64,000 nucleotides of DNA from Promethearchaeota archaeon (GTDB taxonomy: Archaea > Asgardarchaeota > Lokiarchaeia > Sigyniarchaeales > SOKP01). Each line of letters opens with the position of its first letter. Positions within the stretch are counted from its first letter, which is position 1. The translations under genes and the position numbers were made by a program. Shown one piece after another: positions 7,490-16,547 of this stretch. Below the pieces are notes generated by a model. It made no database searches, was not told the origin of the DNA, and saw only the letters and a program-made list of their open reading frames with translations. The stretch is taken from NCBI GenBank assembly GCA_016840165.1, contig JAEOSU010000072.1:256001-320000 (forward strand), read 5' to 3'.

Positions 7490-7620
7490 TTATAAGTGAG
7501 ACTATTCTAATAAGAAATATTCAAATCAATACTATTTATAACTAATTTTCTAATTTAAAAATATCACAAAAACAATTATTACACCTCTAAAATGTTATAT
7601 TGTAAAAATTAGGATTTTTG

Positions 7621-7676
7621 TGAATAATTATTCATGTGTCACATCATTGTGACAGGATTGTGACAACATTTAAATA
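7621..7676 (+). promoter_or_regulatory. Operator array and TATA box upstream of actin
   Basis: Perfect palindrome TGAATAATTATTCA (7621-7634). TGTCACA (7637), TGTGACA (7648) and TGTGACA (7659) at 11-bp period. TTTAAATA at 7669-7676. Confidence 0.6.
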
Positions 7677-7795
7677 TTATAATTAGTTTTATCTTATTAA
7701 AATCAAATGCTGGAATAAATCTTTAGTTATTAATGTATTAAACAAGATCAGAGAAATTACAGGATATGTTGATTTAATTAAAACTTAATAGCCTA

Positions 7796-8986
7796 ATGAG
7801 AAATTGTAGCATTATACCAACAATAAGTAAAGTCATGGAGAATTATGATATGAAAGATATTAATTTTAAGAAAGCAATTATAATAGATAATGGAACAGGA
7901 ATCTCTAAGAATGGTTTTGGTGGTGAAGATCAACCGAGATCAGTTTTTCCAACTATGATGGGAACTCCAAAATACGGAACAGTAATGCCTGATGTAAAAC
8001 ATTTCTCAAGAGAGCATTATATTGGAGAGGAAGCAATGGAACTGAAAGGTCTATTGAATCTTAAATTTCCAATTGAACACGGGATTGTGGAAGATTGGCC
8101 TGCAATGGAAAGACTTTGGCATTATACTTTTTATACAGATTTAAGGGTTGATCCTTCAGAGTATCCAGTTCTTCTTACTGAAGCACCATTAAATCCTCGC
8201 CAAAATAGAGAAAAAATGGCTGAAATTATGTTCGAAACATTCAATGTTCCTGCGTTATATATTGCTATGCAAGCAGTCTTATCATTATATGCTTCAGGAA
8301 GAACTACAGGGACAGTAATAGATATAGGAGATGGAGTTTCTCACATCGTTCCAATTTATGAAGGATTTGCTTTAAGTCATGCGATAGAAAGGATTGATTT
8401 AGCTGGACGGGATGTAACAAAATATATGAAAAGATTATTGCGTCAGAATGGTTATTCATTTACCACTAGTGCAGAAACAGAAATTGTAAGAGATATTAAA
8501 GAGAAGTTGTGTTATGTTGCAATTGATCCTGAAAAAGAACTTTTACTTTCAAAGAAAGTTAGCGGTATGAATAAACATTACATGTTACCAGATGGAGAGA
8601 CCGTGAGTCTAGGCATTGAAAGATTTTTAGCACCTGAGTGTTTCTTTAATCCCTCAGTTATTGGAAAAGAATTAGAACCTATTGATGAACTTATTGTCAG
8701 TGCAATAACTGAGTGTGATGTTGATCTTCGAAGAGATCTTTATAGCAATATTGTTCTGTCTGGTGGATCTACAATGTTTCCTGGTATTAAAGAAAGAATA
8801 ATTAAAGAAATAAAAGAAATGATCTCTGAATCTGTGGATGTTAGGATCATCAGCCCACCCGAACGAATGTATTCCGTTTGGATTGGAGGTTCGATTTTGG
8901 GCTCATTAAAGACCTTTCATAGAATGTGGATCACAAGGCGAGAATACAAGGAATTTGGACCAACGATAATTCATCGTTGTTTCTAA
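7796..8986 (+). CDS. Actin (Asgard, close to eukaryotic actin)
   Basis: [93 protein letters not shown] and C-terminal IIHRCF. True start may be 7835 or 7850. Confidence 0.97.
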
Positions 8987-9032
8987 TAAAAGTATTATTT
9001 TTTTAATTTCCCTTAACGAGGAAAATAAAAAT

Positions 9033-10235
9033 ATGGAAAATGTAAGGAATAAAATTGAAAAATATCTTGATTCAGAATCGAGAATAATCTCTACCACAAT
9101 TATTGAAGAGAGAAATAAAATAGTATACACTTCAGATAATTGGGACATATCTGATGATTTAGACTCAATCAATTCCTTATGGGAGTTAGAGAAGCATGGA
9201 GAATTGATAGTTAATAAAATTAAATATAAAATTATACAAATGTCCTCTGAAAAATTAGTGGCTATGAATTTGGAAGGTAAAGGGAGTCTTATTGGTTTTA
9301 AAGATGATGAACGTAGAATTATCTCTAGAGTGGAACCAGGTGATGCTGCTTTTATAGGGTTAATGGAATCTTCGAGGACATTGGGAAGGCTTCGTAAAAA
9401 GGATCCTTATCTCGATCCTAATACTAAGTTAGGTAAAATAAACGATGTTATATGGGCAACACCAAAAGTGTTACTTAATGACACCTATAATTTACAGAGA
9501 TTAGGATTATTAAAAGTTGGATTAACCCTGGATGAGGCAAAAGTCTATTTAGCTTTACTACAAAGTGGTGAAGATGGAGAAAAAGTTGGAAATCTAAATA
9601 AACAATTGGAAATAAAGAGAACAACAATATACCGAATAATAGATCGATTAATAAACAAGGGATGGGTATATAAGTTAATGGAAAGACCAACAGGTACAAC
9701 ATTATATATAGCTAAGCCACTAAATGAATTTATCGATGACATTATCGAGGAAAAAGAAGAAGAACTAAGAATACTAAAGAGCTTCCGATTTGTGATGGGA
9801 GAAAGTTCAGAAAATGGTTGGATTGACTTTTCCAGAGAGAATGATACATTGGGATTGATTGGACTAGAGAAAGATTGTGGTCTGATTGTATTCGAATATG
9901 ATGAGATTGTTAAGGAAAAAGTGATTATTCAGGCTGCTTTACAATTATCCTATGAAAGATTAAAGAAACATTTACAACTGGATTCAAATGAAAAAAAAAA
10001 TATTAATCAGGACATTGAGGATATCAAAATTACGAATATTAATATAAATGAGTATTTTGGAGCTAATATGTATATTAGATTTAAAGAAGGGACAAAAAGC
10101 GCGAATAATGTGGGCAATGACTGGATTTTATTGACAAAACATGTCGCGATTCCTATTGAAGATAAAATTTATGTAATTTGGGGTTCTGAGGAAAAATTTC
10201 CAATATTATTAAGCATAATTTTAAAGATAAGATAA
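9033..10235 (+). CDS. Profilin-like domain fused to TrmB-type wHTH and an unknown C-terminal domain
   Basis: aa 1-120 match the Loki profilin pattern (IVYTSDNWDISDDL, IKYKII..SSEKLVAMNLEGKGSLI). aa 160-250 match TrmB (GLTLDEAKVYLALL, IKRTTIYRIIDRLINKGWV, YIAKP) followed by a coiled coil. Confidence 0.8.
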   Translation: MENVRNKIEKYLDSESRIISTTIIEERNKIVYTSDNWDISDDLDSINSLWELEKHGELIVNKIKYKIIQMSSEKLVAMNLEGKGSLIGFKDDERRIISRVEPGDAAFIGLMESSRTLGRLRKKDPYLDPNTKLGKINDVIWATPKVLLNDTYNLQRLGLLKVGLTLDEAKVYLALLQSGEDGEKVGNLNKQLEIKRTTIYRIIDRLINKGWVYKLMERPTGTTLYIAKPLNEFIDDIIEEKEEELRILKSFRFVMGESSENGWIDFSRENDTLGLIGLEKDCGLIVFEYDEIVKEKVIIQAALQLSYERLKKHLQLDSNEKKNINQDIEDIKITNININEYFGANMYIRFKEGTKSANNVGNDWILLTKHVAIPIEDKIYVIWGSEEKFPILLSIILKIR

Positions 10236-10755: not shown

Positions 10756-13700
10756 TTAGTATTTCAATTCTACCCAATTTTCCAACTCAAGATAAAGCTT
10801 TTTTAGATTGTTAATTTGATCATCATTCGCTTCCCAATAACCCCTATTATTCGCTTGAAGCATATTTTTTATGATGTCCATCATCGCAAAACGGTTATTT
10901 TCTTCTAATAAATCTCTCAACTCTGCATTTTCTATGTATTGATCATAAGCTTTATCCCAAATCCAGTTATCTACTTTATGTGTCGTGGCAGATAGCCCTA
11001 GAAAATTCTCCACACGCTCTGCAACTTTTTGCCCACCATGGTATTTATGCTTTAGGAGAGTTTTAATCCACTTAGGGTTTAATGAACGAGTTATTGCTCC
11101 TTCCTTGATGCTCTCTTCAAGGCGTTGTACTTTTATTTTTTTAGAAGAAGAATCTGCGATATAAATATTTGCTTCCTTCCCACTTAGTTCCTTATAAGTA
11201 CGTGCTAAACCACCAGTGAATTCATAGTAATGATCTAAGTCTGTAATAGAATATTCGCTCGAATCGCGAATTTGACTCATGATTTCAACTTCATTAATAG
11301 TTTGAGAAAAATTTTCAACCAACTGCTTTACTTTTTGGTTTTTCATATAAGCAAAACTCATGTTTCTTATATAATCCTCCGCTAATTCTTTTTCATCTCC
11401 CCATTTTCCAGCAGAGATAATCTCAGTTAAATTGGTATTGTATTTGCCTGGAGGTGGACCAAACACTCGAGCTTTCGCATTCTCTAATCCTTTTTGTTGC
11501 ATTGTTAAGACTGATTTCTTTACGAAGTTCTGATTAACATCCTCATCTAATTCTGCTACTAATTCTATTGCTTTATTGATTAACTCTAAATGATAGGGAA
11601 AAGTATCACGAAAAATTCCGCATATTGTGATAAGAACATTTATTCGTGGATGCAGCATCTCCTCTAAAGGTATAACTTCTAATTCAGTAGTCCAGATGGA
11701 TTTATTCTTGACGGGTCTTACACCTAAATAATTAAAGATCTGACCTATAGTCTCTCCTCCAGTTTTCATGGTTTCAAAAGCCCAAAGCACAACACTCACG
11801 GACTTGGGCCATTCTTTATTATTATTTTGATAATCTTGGAGGAGTTTTTCTGCTATCTCATTACCACGAGTTAATGCTGTCGAATTAGGAATGAGCCGGG
11901 GGTCAAATCCATAAGAATTTTTCCCAGTTGGAAAAATATGTGGTGAACGAATAGGATCACCCCCTAACCCTGGTTCAATATATCCACCTTCCAAAGCATG
12001 GATAATATTATCCAATTCTAACGTATCATCGATTTTAAATATTAACTCTCGCATCCAATCAATCGTATACTCTATTAAGTCATCCTTGGTGTCAATGTAA
12101 GAAGTCAATTCATTTTTAATATCATTAAAGGACTTGTCTAAAGATAAAAATTCATAAGATTCATCTATAAATCTATCAAGCAATTCAGTGTCAAGAATAT
12201 GATTATCAATTTTGAAATAGAATAAAAAATCTTCTATATATGAGGGTTTCTCCGTAGAATGAAGGATAATGTTTTTTAGAAGATCTTTTTTCTGATCATC
12301 TGTATAGTGAATTCCTAAAGAATGCAATCCCATAGGAATTATTTCTTGTTTGTAATTATAGAGTTTATCCTCTAATTCAGAAATAGTACTATATTCAATA
12401 TTCATTTGCTTAGCCAATTCTCTGATCTCCTGACTTAAGTCACCAATCCTAACATCATTTTGTTCGAATTTAGGATTATTTTCTGAATTAAAGGAGATTC
12501 TTTGATATTCAGAGATTAATTCTTCTAATTTCTCAAATTCATCATAAAGACCCGATTCTTGAAATGTGGGTCCCGCATGGTTAATAATAAGTGCATTCCC
12601 TCTTCTCTTGGCAATCGCAGACTCACTAGTATTAGTTATGTGATAATAATATATATTGGGAAGAGTTCCTATTAATTTCAAATTAAAGTCATGAATCCAG
12701 CCAGCACATTCTTTCCCCGGGAGAAATTCTTCAGTTCCATGAGTTCCTACATGGATTAGGACATCGACGTCTAAATTCTTTTCAAGATAATGATAGAAAG
12801 CTAAATATTGATGGTGAGGGGGCAAATTTTTATCATGGTATTCATTACTATCTCCCGAAACTCTACTTCTTGATGGTTGGATACAGAGATATATATTACC
12901 AAAAGAAATTATTGGCAATCTAATATGAGAATTAGCAAGCATTATATCTCCCGGTGGTTCACCCCAAAATTGAATAACTTCTTGTTGTTGCTCTAAAGGA
13001 AGAGTATGAAAGTAATGAATATAATCTTGAAGATTTAGCTCTGCACCTTTGTAATCCTTAACATTAGTATATTTTGGTAAATTTACTACCCCATAATTCA
13101 CTAATAATTCCATAAGATTATGTTCAATAGAAAAATCTTCGATGTAATATCCTTCCTGAATCATTTTTGTTATTAATTGCTTAATTGATTCTGAAACGTC
13201 TAGATATGCAGCATTTCCAATTTTATCTTCTCCTGGAGGGTAATTATATACAATAATCGCGATTTTTTTGTCTTGATTTTTTTTTATTCTTAGTTGCAGC
13301 CATTTTTTAATTCTTTCGCAATATAATGCAATACTTTCTTCTAATGGTTTGACTTCAAGAATATTAGAATTTATTTTCTCCGAAAAACCTAAATCCTCAA
13401 GTAACCCAACAGTAGTCATTTCTATTCGACCATCTAATTCAGGCATGACTATGGCTATAACTTGATTGATAGGAATAATGCCCTCCTTTGATTTAAAGTA
13501 CTCTTCAAATGTAATATCATATTGAATAATTGGATTAAATTGGGGAATATCCATTTTCTTAAATAAATCGAGAGTAGTTATACCATTACCACCAAAGGGT
13601 CCACCATTCAATTGAAAATATTGAAGATTAATAACTGCACTGACTAAACATCTTCCATTGGTAAAGAATAAGGTTTCATAAGCATCAATATTTGTTAATA

Positions 13701-14565
13701 CATCAGAAAAAATGGGAAGTAAATTGAATTCGGATAAGTTCCTCATAAATTCTTTCACGATAGGAAGAGATTGTTCAAAATACAAACCTCCATAATAAAA
13801 TATACCAACAGTTTGTTTTTTGGGGTCATAATTAATTTTTTGAAAATATTCTTCAGAAGTTTGAAAATATTCGCTTAGGAGGGGATCGTAAATACCATAT
13901 GGTGGAATTTTTTTTGGTTTCTCAACTTGAAGGTTCTTATATCCAAGATAGTGTTTTAAAAGGAAGAGTATCATATTTTTATGGTTTACCGCAATACCAC
14001 CTAAACCATGTACCCAGTAATCCATCATCATAACCCAATATCGAGCATGTCTTAAAGTCTTTACAGGAAAAACTTTACCTAAAAAACCTAAGAATTTCGT
14101 CATTCTTTGACCAAATCGTACTGCTTTGGTCAAATCAGGAATTTCATCGATATTGTATCCATCACTACTTGGGGAGGGAATTTTTCGTGCTTGAAATGAT
14201 CCCATTTTAGTTAGACCTCTTATTTCACTATTCCCCCCGACTAACGCAACAATTTCTTTAGTTTCAAATAAATTAGGATTTTCTTCCTCCATCTTTCTAT
14301 AAGTTTTAACCAAGATTTCAACTGTAGGAGAATTTCCACGAATATCTAATAACATTATATCAGATTTATAGATGGAGGTAATTAATTCCTCTTCTGGAAT
14401 CTTTCCAGAGTCCAAATCATTTAAGAAATAAATTTTAAATTCGAAAAGTTTACCTAATTCTTTATATAGTTCATCAATTGCTTCAGTTAACCACTTTAAA
14501 AAAACAGACGTTGTAATTAAGGATATTTGAGGCAATTGTTTAGTATTTGGATTCGTTGAATTCAT
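10756..14565 (-). CDS. Cobaltochelatase CobN / Mg-chelatase H family subunit
   Basis: PELDGRIE, YNYPPG, PPHHQYLAFY, HVGTHGTEEFLPGK, PTGKN..GFDP and DLDHYYEF. Confidence 0.9.
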   Translation of the reverse strand: MNSTNPNTKQLPQISLITTSVFLKWLTEAIDELYKELGKLFEFKIYFLNDLDSGKIPEEELITSIYKSDIMLLDIRGNSPTVEILVKTYRKMEEENPNLFETKEIVALVGGNSEIRGLTKMGSFQARKIPSPSSDGYNIDEIPDLTKAVRFGQRMTKFLGFLGKVFPVKTLRHARYWVMMMDYWVHGLGGIAVNHKNMILFLLKHYLGYKNLQVEKPKKIPPYGIYDPLLSEYFQTSEEYFQKINYDPKKQTVGIFYYGGLYFEQSLPIVKEFMRNLSEFNLLPIFSDVLTNIDAYETLFFTNGRCLVSAVINLQYFQLNGGPFGGNGITTLDLFKKMDIPQFNPIIQYDITFEEYFKSKEGIIPINQVIAIVMPELDGRIEMTTVGLLEDLGFSEKINSNILEVKPLEESIALYCERIKKWLQLRIKKNQDKKIAIIVYNYPPGEDKIGNAAYLDVSESIKQLITKMIQEGYYIEDFSIEHNLMELLVNYGVVNLPKYTNVKDYKGAELNLQDYIHYFHTLPLEQQQEVIQFWGEPPGDIMLANSHIRLPIISFGNIYLCIQPSRSRVSGDSNEYHDKNLPPHHQYLAFYHYLEKNLDVDVLIHVGTHGTEEFLPGKECAGWIHDFNLKLIGTLPNIYYYHITNTSESAIAKRRGNALIINHAGPTFQESGLYDEFEKLEELISEYQRISFNSENNPKFEQNDVRIGDLSQEIRELAKQMNIEYSTISELEDKLYNYKQEIIPMGLHSLGIHYTDDQKKDLLKNIILHSTEKPSYIEDFLFYFKIDNHILDTELLDRFIDESYEFLSLDKSFNDIKNELTSYIDTKDDLIEYTIDWMRELIFKIDDTLELDNIIHALEGGYIEPGLGGDPIRSPHIFPTGKNSYGFDPRLIPNSTALTRGNEIAEKLLQDYQNNNKEWPKSVSVVLWAFETMKTGGETIGQIFNYLGVRPVKNKSIWTTELEVIPLEEMLHPRINVLITICGIFRDTFPYHLELINKAIELVAELDEDVNQNFVKKSVLTMQQKGLENAKARVFGPPPGKYNTNLTEIISAGKWGDEKELAEDYIRNMSFAYMKNQKVKQLVENFSQTINEVEIMSQIRDSSEYSITDLDHYYEFTGGLARTYKELSGKEANIYIADSSSKKIKVQRLEESIKEGAITRSLNPKWIKTLLKHKYHGGQKVAERVENFLGLSATTHKVDNWIWDKAYDQYIENAELRDLLEENNRFAMMDIIKNMLQANNRGYWEANDDQINNLKKLYLELENWVELKY

Positions 14566-14567
14566 TA

Positions 14568-16547
14568 TTATTCACGCTTATTATGAACTAATCCTTCACT
14601 TTCCAACACACTACTCACGTTTTCTTGATTCATGTTGCTTATGTGATAGTACAATGCATTGGACGCTTCTGCAAATTTTTTATTGATTCCAAGTTTCACA
14701 TCTGTCGCTTCCGTATCAATTATTATCATATCGATGCCATTTTTTGTTATTTCCTTGCCAATATTCATTATATCTTTAATTGGATCTTTAAAAAATACAT
14801 TTCCTCGGGCATCAGAAATAAGAATAATCAATGGGATATATCCTGTACTCTTTCTCTTTTCTTCAAGAGCAATATTTAAGGCTTTACTTAAACCTGTGAC
14901 CAATGGGGTTGTACCCCCCGTTGGGACCTCTTTTAATAACTTATATGCTAAATCAGTACTTCTTGTTGGAGGTAGAATTACTTCAGCATCATCTCCTCGG
15001 AAAACCACCAAAGATACTTTATCACGGTATACATAATTAGATTGGAGTAGAGAAAAAATTACCCCTTTTACAGCTTGCATTCTATCGTTTGCACCCATTG
15101 AACCGGAAGCGTCGACACAAAAAATAATTAAGTAGCTAGATTTCCCAATCCTTCTTTTAACGTGTATATGCTCTTCTCTAACTTTTAATTTGTCACCATT
15201 TTTAACTGCTTCTTTATTCTCAGATTCTAATGCTGCTGTGTTAAGAGTTTGTAATACTGCGATGTCTGCAGAACTTGTAAAATTGAAATTTTTAGGCTTT
15301 TGACCACTAATATATTTTCCTTTCTTATCTTGGGTAGGATGGAGTAATCTTTGTCCGGAAGTATTCATTTGCTTTTTCATTCTTTTCTTTTCCAAAACTC
15401 TATCTGCATTAATGGATGTATCGATGTCAAAAGTTCGTTCTTTTATATTATTAATCATTTTTTCATTAATTTCCTTTGAATCAGGGGGAAGAGTAGCTTG
15501 TTCTTCTAGTTGCTGCTCCTCATTAAACATCTTATCGATTTCCTCTTCATCGATAACATTTTCTTCAAAGGGAAGTTTTCTTAAACGGTGAGCTAAAGCT
15601 AACTTAGCTGCAATTTTAATGTCATCATCAACTACTTCTTTCCTTCCATTAAAGGCCGCAATTGTTTTAGCAGTTATGTTAATGGTAATATCTGCGCGAT
15701 GACTATCAATCTCTAATTGTACAGAAAGTTGAGCGATTTTCTTTAGTTGCTCTTCTGAAATTTGAACATTATCAATAATTTTGCGAGCATTCACAATTTT
15801 TTCTCTCAAAATTTTTTGCTCATGCTCGAATCTATCGTGGAACTCATGAGGATCAATGTGATATTGCTCAGAATATTTAATTATTAGAACGCGCTTATCA
15901 ATATCTAATATTGGTTTTGCTTCTACACTTAGACCAAATCGATCTAAAAGCTGGGGTCGTAAATTTCCTTCTTCGGGATTCATTGTTCCAACTAAAATAA
16001 AGTTGGAGGGATGATGAATACTTATTCCTTCACGTTCAATTATGTTTATCCCCATGGCGGCACTGTCTAATAACACATCTGCAACATTATCCGCAAGCAA
16101 GTTAACTTCGTCAATATAGAGAATATTCCTATTCGCTTCAGCTAAAATTCCTGGTTCAAGAGCTTTTAATCCCTCTTCTAAAGCTTTTTTTATATCTATA
16201 GTTCCAACCACTCTATCTTCGGTTGCATTAATAGGGAGATTGATTACTCTCATCTTTCGTGATTCTATGTCACTTTCATCTAATTTATTTTCGATAATTT
16301 TATGTTGACACGCATGACATGATTCTTTTAAATTATCAGGATTACAATTGAAAGGACAATCTTTAATAATTTTGATTTCGGGGAGTAAATCTGCCAATGC
16401 TCTGACTGCAGTTGATTTTGCTGTTCCTTTCGTTCCTTTAATTAGTACACCTCCAATTTTAGGATTGATCGCATTTAAAATCAGCGCAAGTTTCATTAAA
16501 TCTTGTCCTACTATTGCAGTAAAAGGATATGTTTTAAAGTGAGTCAT
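14568..16547 (-). CDS. Chelatase ChlI/ChlD-type AAA+ subunit with C-terminal VWA
   Basis: [43 protein letters not shown], an acidic linker and MIDAS motif DASGSM. Confidence 0.92.

Follow-up and report, generated by a model that had tools for sequence, protein, structure and literature searches.

We identified, in a 64,000-nucleotide stretch of a Promethearchaeota genome (hereafter the window; contig JAEOSU010000072.1, assembly GCA_016840165.1), a gene whose product joins a profilin domain to a TrmB-type winged helix and a further C-terminal domain, and which follows a second, divergent Lokiactin gene with an operator-like palindrome at its promoter (Table 1). The architecture is real and conserved and, it seems, has not been described before. 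The reading that we favour, and put at a little under an even chance, is that of an actin-sensing autoregulator, in which free actin bound to the profilin head would switch the transcription of a specialised actin isoform and, where present, of a small cassette protein.

Table 1. Features of the second-actin cassette, in window coordinates
Feature	Position	Strand	Remarks
Perfect palindrome TGTCAC-N6-GTGACA	7637..7654	.	operator-like; conserved at second-actin promoters
Second overlapping site	7648..7665	.	1 mismatch; shifted 11 bp; overlies the BRE position and stops 3 nt short of TATA
Archaeal TATA box of the cassette	7669..7676	+	92-100% conserved per position in 39 promoters aligned at the box; putative use as promoter
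Actin-2, second Lokiactin copy	7850..8986	+	378 aa from the probable start; Pfam Actin E 8e-129
Profilin–winged helix–C-domain fusion regulator	9033..10235	+	400 aa; profile, structure and homologue searches
Profilin domain, aa 1-124	9033..9404	+	Odin-profilin-like, without the Loki loop
Conserved linker, aa 125-158	9405..9506	+	P125, Y126, W141 and P144 invariant or nearly so
TrmB-type winged helix-turn-helix and dimer helix, aa 159-255	9507..9797	+	PF01978; fold match
C-terminal alpha/beta domain, aa 282-399	9876..10229	+	common to profilin-less relatives; weak Mog1/PsbP-like fold

The fusion gene lies where the earlier note had placed it, on the same strand as the actin and 46 nt after the actin stop at 8986. 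That note, made from the letters alone, had read the product as a profilin followed by a TrmB winged helix and a coiled coil, and both parts are borne out: PF01978 matches aa 160-229 (E 1.6e-12; 47.5 bits against a cutoff of 25.6), a helix follows at 230-255, and structure alignment of the winged helix with TrmBL2 (5bpd) gives a Z of 11.9. What it had overlooked is the third folded domain, aa 282-399. The AlphaFold model of the whole protein has a mean pLDDT of 73.8, with linker residues 133-147 at low confidence. The homologues number 164, are full length in most of those listed and, where labelled with an organism, all come from Asgard archaea, for the most part Promethearchaeota. Within this family the profilin domain is the least conserved part (41% identity, against 55-65% for the others).

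For the head, phmmer matched aa 18-118 to the Odin profilin 5zza_P (E 6.6e-8) and also to the Thor (7pbh) and Loki (5yed/5zzb) profilins (E 7e-7 to 2e-5), which upholds the profilin identity that had been proposed from sequence patterns; the Pfam Profilin profile PF00235 does not match the head, as with many other Asgard profilins. Over aa 1-124 the model aligns with Loki profilin-1 at Z 17.9 (rmsd 2.1, 123 aa), with Odin profilin at Z 17.0 and with eukaryotic profilins at Z 13-15, whereas roadblock domains reach at most Z 10.6; a Foldseek check agrees with the profilin assignment. These scores rule out a generic roadblock/GAF fold, and the head, as modelled, is a true profilin fold. Stand-alone Asgard profilins (5ZZA, 5YED/5YEE, 5ZZB, 7PBH) have the fold, the sequence likeness and the modelled actin-facing surface in common with the fusion, but the fusion head is part of a DNA-binding protein, is without the Loki loop and has a conserved C-terminal tail. 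The stand-alone proteins inhibit actin polymerisation (PMC8410842).

Modelling of the complex between the profilin domain and actin-2, which the earlier note had suggested, yields the canonical profilin–actin face (actin residues 170-177, 290-293 and 355-378, with linker residues 125-127 also in contact) at a score of 0.74, against 0.00 for the best of three controls; similar complexes have already been solved, so that this pass may simply reproduce them and speaks for likeness rather than for binding. The runs share at least 85% of their contacts and the partner pLDDT is at least 80; in calibration, 58 of 80 solved complexes and 2 of 110 mismatched pairs came up to this mark, figures that are a rough guide for the present model, which was made with custom alignments. 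Several of the predicted actin-contact positions vary in the fusion profilin domain. We consider it probable that the profilin head binds free actin.

The fusion profilin belongs to a side branch nearest a 201-aa Lokiarchaeial protein and not to the canonical profilin of the genome. An LCM methyltransferase and two other tails likewise carry profilins of this branch, none of them near an actin; of the fusion types seen, the DNA-binding one stands alone in its link to an actin gene. When shorter homologues were sought with aa 1-128, one fragment was returned. The LCM fusions (PF04072, E 1.5e-33) occur in three Lokiarchaeia families (L127:3877-5184, L199:2947-4212, L200:3752-5008, L201 and L203), two near-universal proteins of 201 aa (L006:1477-2082) and 212 aa (L007:1495-2133) consist of a profilin and a small helical tail, and further profilin fusions take 256-aa and 728-aa forms (L130-L134; L204:91-2277).

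The C-terminal domain folds well when predicted alone, and its top fold matches (Apa, DcrB, Mog1, PsbP) are weak, with Z of 5.3-6.7 and rmsd of 4-6.5; in the Atlas its matches have a TM of about 0.5-0.57, and an Atlas feature search returned nothing usable. The TrmB sugar effector-binding domain PF11495 has no Pfam match in aa 250-400 and the best fold matches are other folds, on which grounds we rejected an assignment as a TrmB sugar-binding domain. Homologues of the C-domain are confined to the fusion family and to profilin-less relatives, solo regulators of ~290 aa that have the same winged helix, including a common recognition helix, and the C-domain as their sole accessory domain. The fusions form one clade beside or within the solo regulators (support 0.994, FastTree, midpoint root), so that the profilin head was, by this tree, probably gained after a profilin-less ancestor. 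The promoters of the solo regulators carry the same TGTC-N10-GACA core, and in 7/7 solo loci a divergent methyltransferase gene has its TATA box 11 nt from the site, which is nearer still to a TATA-like element on the regulator's own side. In these loci (L024, L026, L038, L048, L049, L054 and L055), the solo regulator and a class I methyltransferase diverge around the common palindrome, and the pair is often found a few kb away from the cassette. A solo regulator is missing from the window's genome, where the fusion is accordingly the only candidate binder from this family.

The adjoining gene encodes an actin, as had been claimed; it is, however, a divergent second copy and not the main Lokiactin, which lies on another contig (C77) and is 83% identical to it. 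The start is probably at 7850, judging by a GGAG at 7837-7840 and the aligned starts of homologues, although the ORF finder gives 7796. Cassette actins form a single clade inside the Lokiactins of the family (support 0.999; this tree and that of the regulators were built with FastTree only, with no AU test, and L031, L052 and partial actins were left out), and their mean identity is 83.5%, compared with 98.7% among main copies. The D-loop region (aa 36-56) of actin-2 is 54% identical to that of the main actin, against 90% for Asgard actins phylum-wide, and the D-loop methionine M46 is kept. Predicted profilin-contact residues are 94% identical to the main actin, against 83% elsewhere, but the barbed-end cleft is also needed for polymerisation, so that its conservation does not single out profilin. 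A conserved Lokiactin copy and Asgard ARPs have been described (PMC9834061); actin-2 arises inside the Lokiactin clade and retains the ATPase motifs, but it is a family-restricted, much faster-evolving duplicate with a remodelled D-loop and not a near-invariant housekeeping copy. A search of complete genomes from the same order did not recover it.

Apparent start codons of actin-2 are ATT in 19 of 40 genes and TTG in 4 of 40, which suggests low actin-2 output. The ATT starts (L015, L016, L018-L030, L032, L035, L036 and L041) follow a strong Shine-Dalgarno sequence, several with an in-frame stop just upstream. Six loci (L025, L027, L028, L032, L038 and L045) have ~130 extra leader bases before actin-2 that can form a long interrupted hairpin, with two-sided changes in 6 of 26 pairs giving weak support. 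A run of T residues at 8998-9004, between the actin-2 and fusion genes, weighs against assuming co-transcription. Another divergent actin duplicate, without a fusion, lies 1.6 kb downstream of a main Lokiactin (L080:5333-6493, genome G226).

The palindrome falls within 7615-7680, the stretch that the earlier note had proposed for EMSA, and in its exact form it occurs nowhere else in the 3.6-Mb genome. Some form of the motif is present at 38 of 39 actin-2 promoters but at none of 39 main-actin promoters and none of 28 other Asgard actin promoters; because the pattern was derived from the actin-2 promoters themselves, the weight rests on these negatives and on a spacing control, which gave 29 matches at N6 against 0-2 at N4, 5, 7 and 8. 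A strict site-plus-TATA pattern matched 23 of 135 genomes, once each, and never the reversed control of the same 135 genomes; 22 of the 23 are fusion carriers, and the single match outside them lies 144 nt upstream of an ORF start cut by a contig end. The proposal that the fusion controls transcription of the adjoining actin has acquired an operator-like site, whereas the lack of the motif at the 39 main-actin promoters led us to reject the main Lokiactin as its target; a global regulon finds no support either, given the single site per genome. In one fusion without an actin, the promoter of the fusion gene itself has the site, 3 nt ahead of its TATA box, and together with the profilin-less relatives this indicates that the motif, as far as its sequence distribution goes, follows the DNA-binding domain rather than actin. 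The fusion can accordingly be predicted, with considerable confidence, to bind this DNA and to autoregulate the cassette. A second, AT-rich palindrome at 7621-7634, just upstream, is kept only in the closest loci (L009-L014, L039). A sigma-70 promoter scan, with a model unsuited to archaea, stayed at chance level.

A near-full-length fusion is encoded in 45 of 135 genomes of the window's Lokiarchaeia family (about a third); the same query recovered none in the remaining 265 of 400 Asgard genomes. The synteny survey that had been recommended placed an actin directly upstream, on the same strand, in 43 of the 44 loci that include upstream DNA. Fusion genomes have at least two close actins in 36 of 44 cases and fusion-free genomes in 2 of 78; all of these genomes are kin and not independent of one another. 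In a separate check of five deep-branching fusions, two lie behind an actin and three do not; at least four fusions (L044, P0192, P0194, P0200) have no upstream actin. The earliest-branching fusion (L211:2240-4763, GCA_048938425.1) follows an actin 98% identical to the main Lokiactin, which may be either the pre-divergence condition or a recent duplicate; near the TATA box of this locus, half-sites are seen whose arrangement is not the standard one. The cassette is an optional second actin with a putative dedicated regulator. The simplest history compatible with these sequences is that an actin gene landed inside the regulator's autoregulated transcription unit, which would in effect have placed it under the regulator's control. 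Decaying cassettes, with broken or truncated actin-2, an actin-less fusion or C-terminal fusion remnants, were also encountered (L017/L136, L044/L135, L054, L056, L138, L097).

We propose the following tentative mechanism. With the order promoter, actin-2, (small gene), regulator, the fusion would be the dedicated regulator of its own cassette and would bind as a dimer to the palindrome next to the TATA box. Because the proximal site overlies the BRE position recognised by TFB, binding there would most likely repress the cassette. The profilin head would dock in the barbed-end cleft of monomeric Lokiactin and/or actin-2, and this would alter operator occupancy via the conserved linker; given both binding activities, we consider such coupling likely. 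As to its sign, negative feedback seems somewhat the better guess, with plentiful free actin keeping the extra actin gene off and falling free actin turning it on.

Two archaeal regulators offer the closest precedents for the DNA-binding side. TrmBL1/Tgr of Thermococcales recognises the TGM site TATCAC-N5-GTGATA, and in the TrmB family dual action is set by site position and autoregulation is known (PMC4158304). The fusion resembles TrmBL1/Tgr in its PF01978 winged helix and dimer helix and in a TGM-like palindrome, but it has no sugar-binding domain, its DNA-binding domain is internal, between the profilin and an unrelated C-domain, the spacer of its site is 6 rather than 5, and it has a single candidate target promoter instead of a global regulon. 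TFB-RF1 (PF1088) of Pyrococcus furiosus is encoded downstream in its own operon and recognises a palindromic site immediately before BRE/TATA (PMC5937170). The 11-nt spacing at the seven methyltransferase loci of the profilin-less relatives reproduces this geometry and, by the rules established for TrmBL1 and TFB-RF1 (PMC4158304, PMC5937170), would fit activation, whereas overlap with the BRE would fit repression. The proximal site of actin-2, only 3-4 nt from the TATA box and over the BRE, differs from the TFB-RF1 arrangement in this way, and the Pyrococcus system includes neither profilin nor actin.

Several other readings have to be weighed against an actin-sensing autoregulator. The fusion might autoregulate the cassette with the C-domain as the real sensor, the profilin binding actin only as a chaperone or monomer buffer for actin-2, or as a tether, and leaving DNA binding unchanged. 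The C-domain, inherited from the profilin-less regulator, is present in every fusion (55% identity), relatives that use the same motif have no other accessory domain, and the low-confidence stretch in the linker fits the same reading. On the other hand, the linker is well conserved (59% identity across fusions) and includes invariant residues, the C-domain of fusions lacks part of the beginning that it has in solo proteins, and free-standing profilin-like genes are present in every sampled genome of the class Lokiarchaeia, so that a fused chaperone would add little; on balance we regard a C-domain sensor as unlikely but deserving of weight. The profilin might instead be a repurposed module for oligomerisation, lipid or partner binding that does not bind actin, with another cue controlling the spare actin. 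The attachment of this side branch to several unrelated tails across Lokiarchaeia, the persistence of actin-free fusions, one of them with its own operator-like site, and the binding of PIP2 by Asgard profilins (PMC8410842) all agree with such reuse. However, the DNA-binding fusion type alone is tied to actin, in 43/44 loci and from the earliest branch onwards, the solved structures nearest to it are of profilins bound to actin, and the modelled contact face is canonical, even if it may reproduce solved complexes; this second alternative appears rather improbable.

It is also conceivable that actin-2 is a poorly polymerising, nucleotide-binding co-regulator in permanent association with the fusion (and the small protein), comparable to nuclear actin or Arp subunits in eukaryotes. 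The altered D-loop beside a retained profilin face and the frequent ATT and TTG starts would suit such a role, but M46 and the ATPase motifs are kept, and with the operator present once per genome, on the cassette only, the complex would be without an outside target; we judge this quite improbable. Finally, the patchy occurrence of the cassette, in variable neighbourhoods, might suggest chance neighbours or a chimeric gene call, an explanation that we consider exceedingly improbable and that is already refuted by the 164 homologues from independent assemblies and the conserved gene order, with both partners monophyletic.

The eukaryotic MRTF–SRF circuit relies on RPEL motifs, on a MADS-box factor that is a protein of its own and on shuttling to and from the nucleus, whereas here one polypeptide contains both profilin and winged helix and the target is an optional second actin; neither RPEL motifs nor a MADS-box appeared in the Pfam scan. 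If the coupling holds, the likeness to MRTF–SRF would be one of logic only, without homology, feedback of free actin on actin transcription having been described as the core role of MAL (MRTF) (PMC4035534). The confinement of the cassette to one Lokiarchaeia family likewise implies a parallel invention and not an ancestor of the eukaryotic system. In the literature searched, with most subscription papers outside its scope, we found no description of a profilin–DNA-binding-domain fusion or of a second Lokiactin, and nothing on how Asgard archaea control the amount of actin. Should actin change the DNA binding of the fusion, a cytoskeleton-to-transcription feedback would have evolved in an archaeon by a route unlike that of eukaryotes: a prokaryotic actin sensor in one polypeptide, an independent counterpart of actin–MRTF–SRF feedback, and an instance of actin isoforms being regulated in a non-eukaryote. 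Even without actin sensing, a duplicated and apparently separately regulated Lokiactin isoform is currently unexpected by specialists. The cassette offers candidates for both sensor and ligand, as well as a precise candidate operator, and each of them is small enough for work in vitro without culture.

About half of the cassettes include a third small gene, an ORF of 60-83 aa between actin-2 and the fusion, detected in 21 genomes and only in this position (one of them, of 65 aa, is L023:3129-3326), and doubled in L053 (5466-5669 and 5676-5870); it is absent from the window's genome. The predicted proteins have an N-terminal DGIPC motif and a C-terminal amphipathic helix, and searches with them gave nothing consistent in Pfam and nothing usable in the Atlas. 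Speculatively, the amphipathic helix recalls actin-binding helices. Downstream of the fusion gene in the window, positions 10756-16547 encode a CobN-like protein of 1269 aa and a ChlI/D-like protein of 659 aa, cobalt/magnesium chelatase-like by sequence appearance, which seem unrelated to the cassette.
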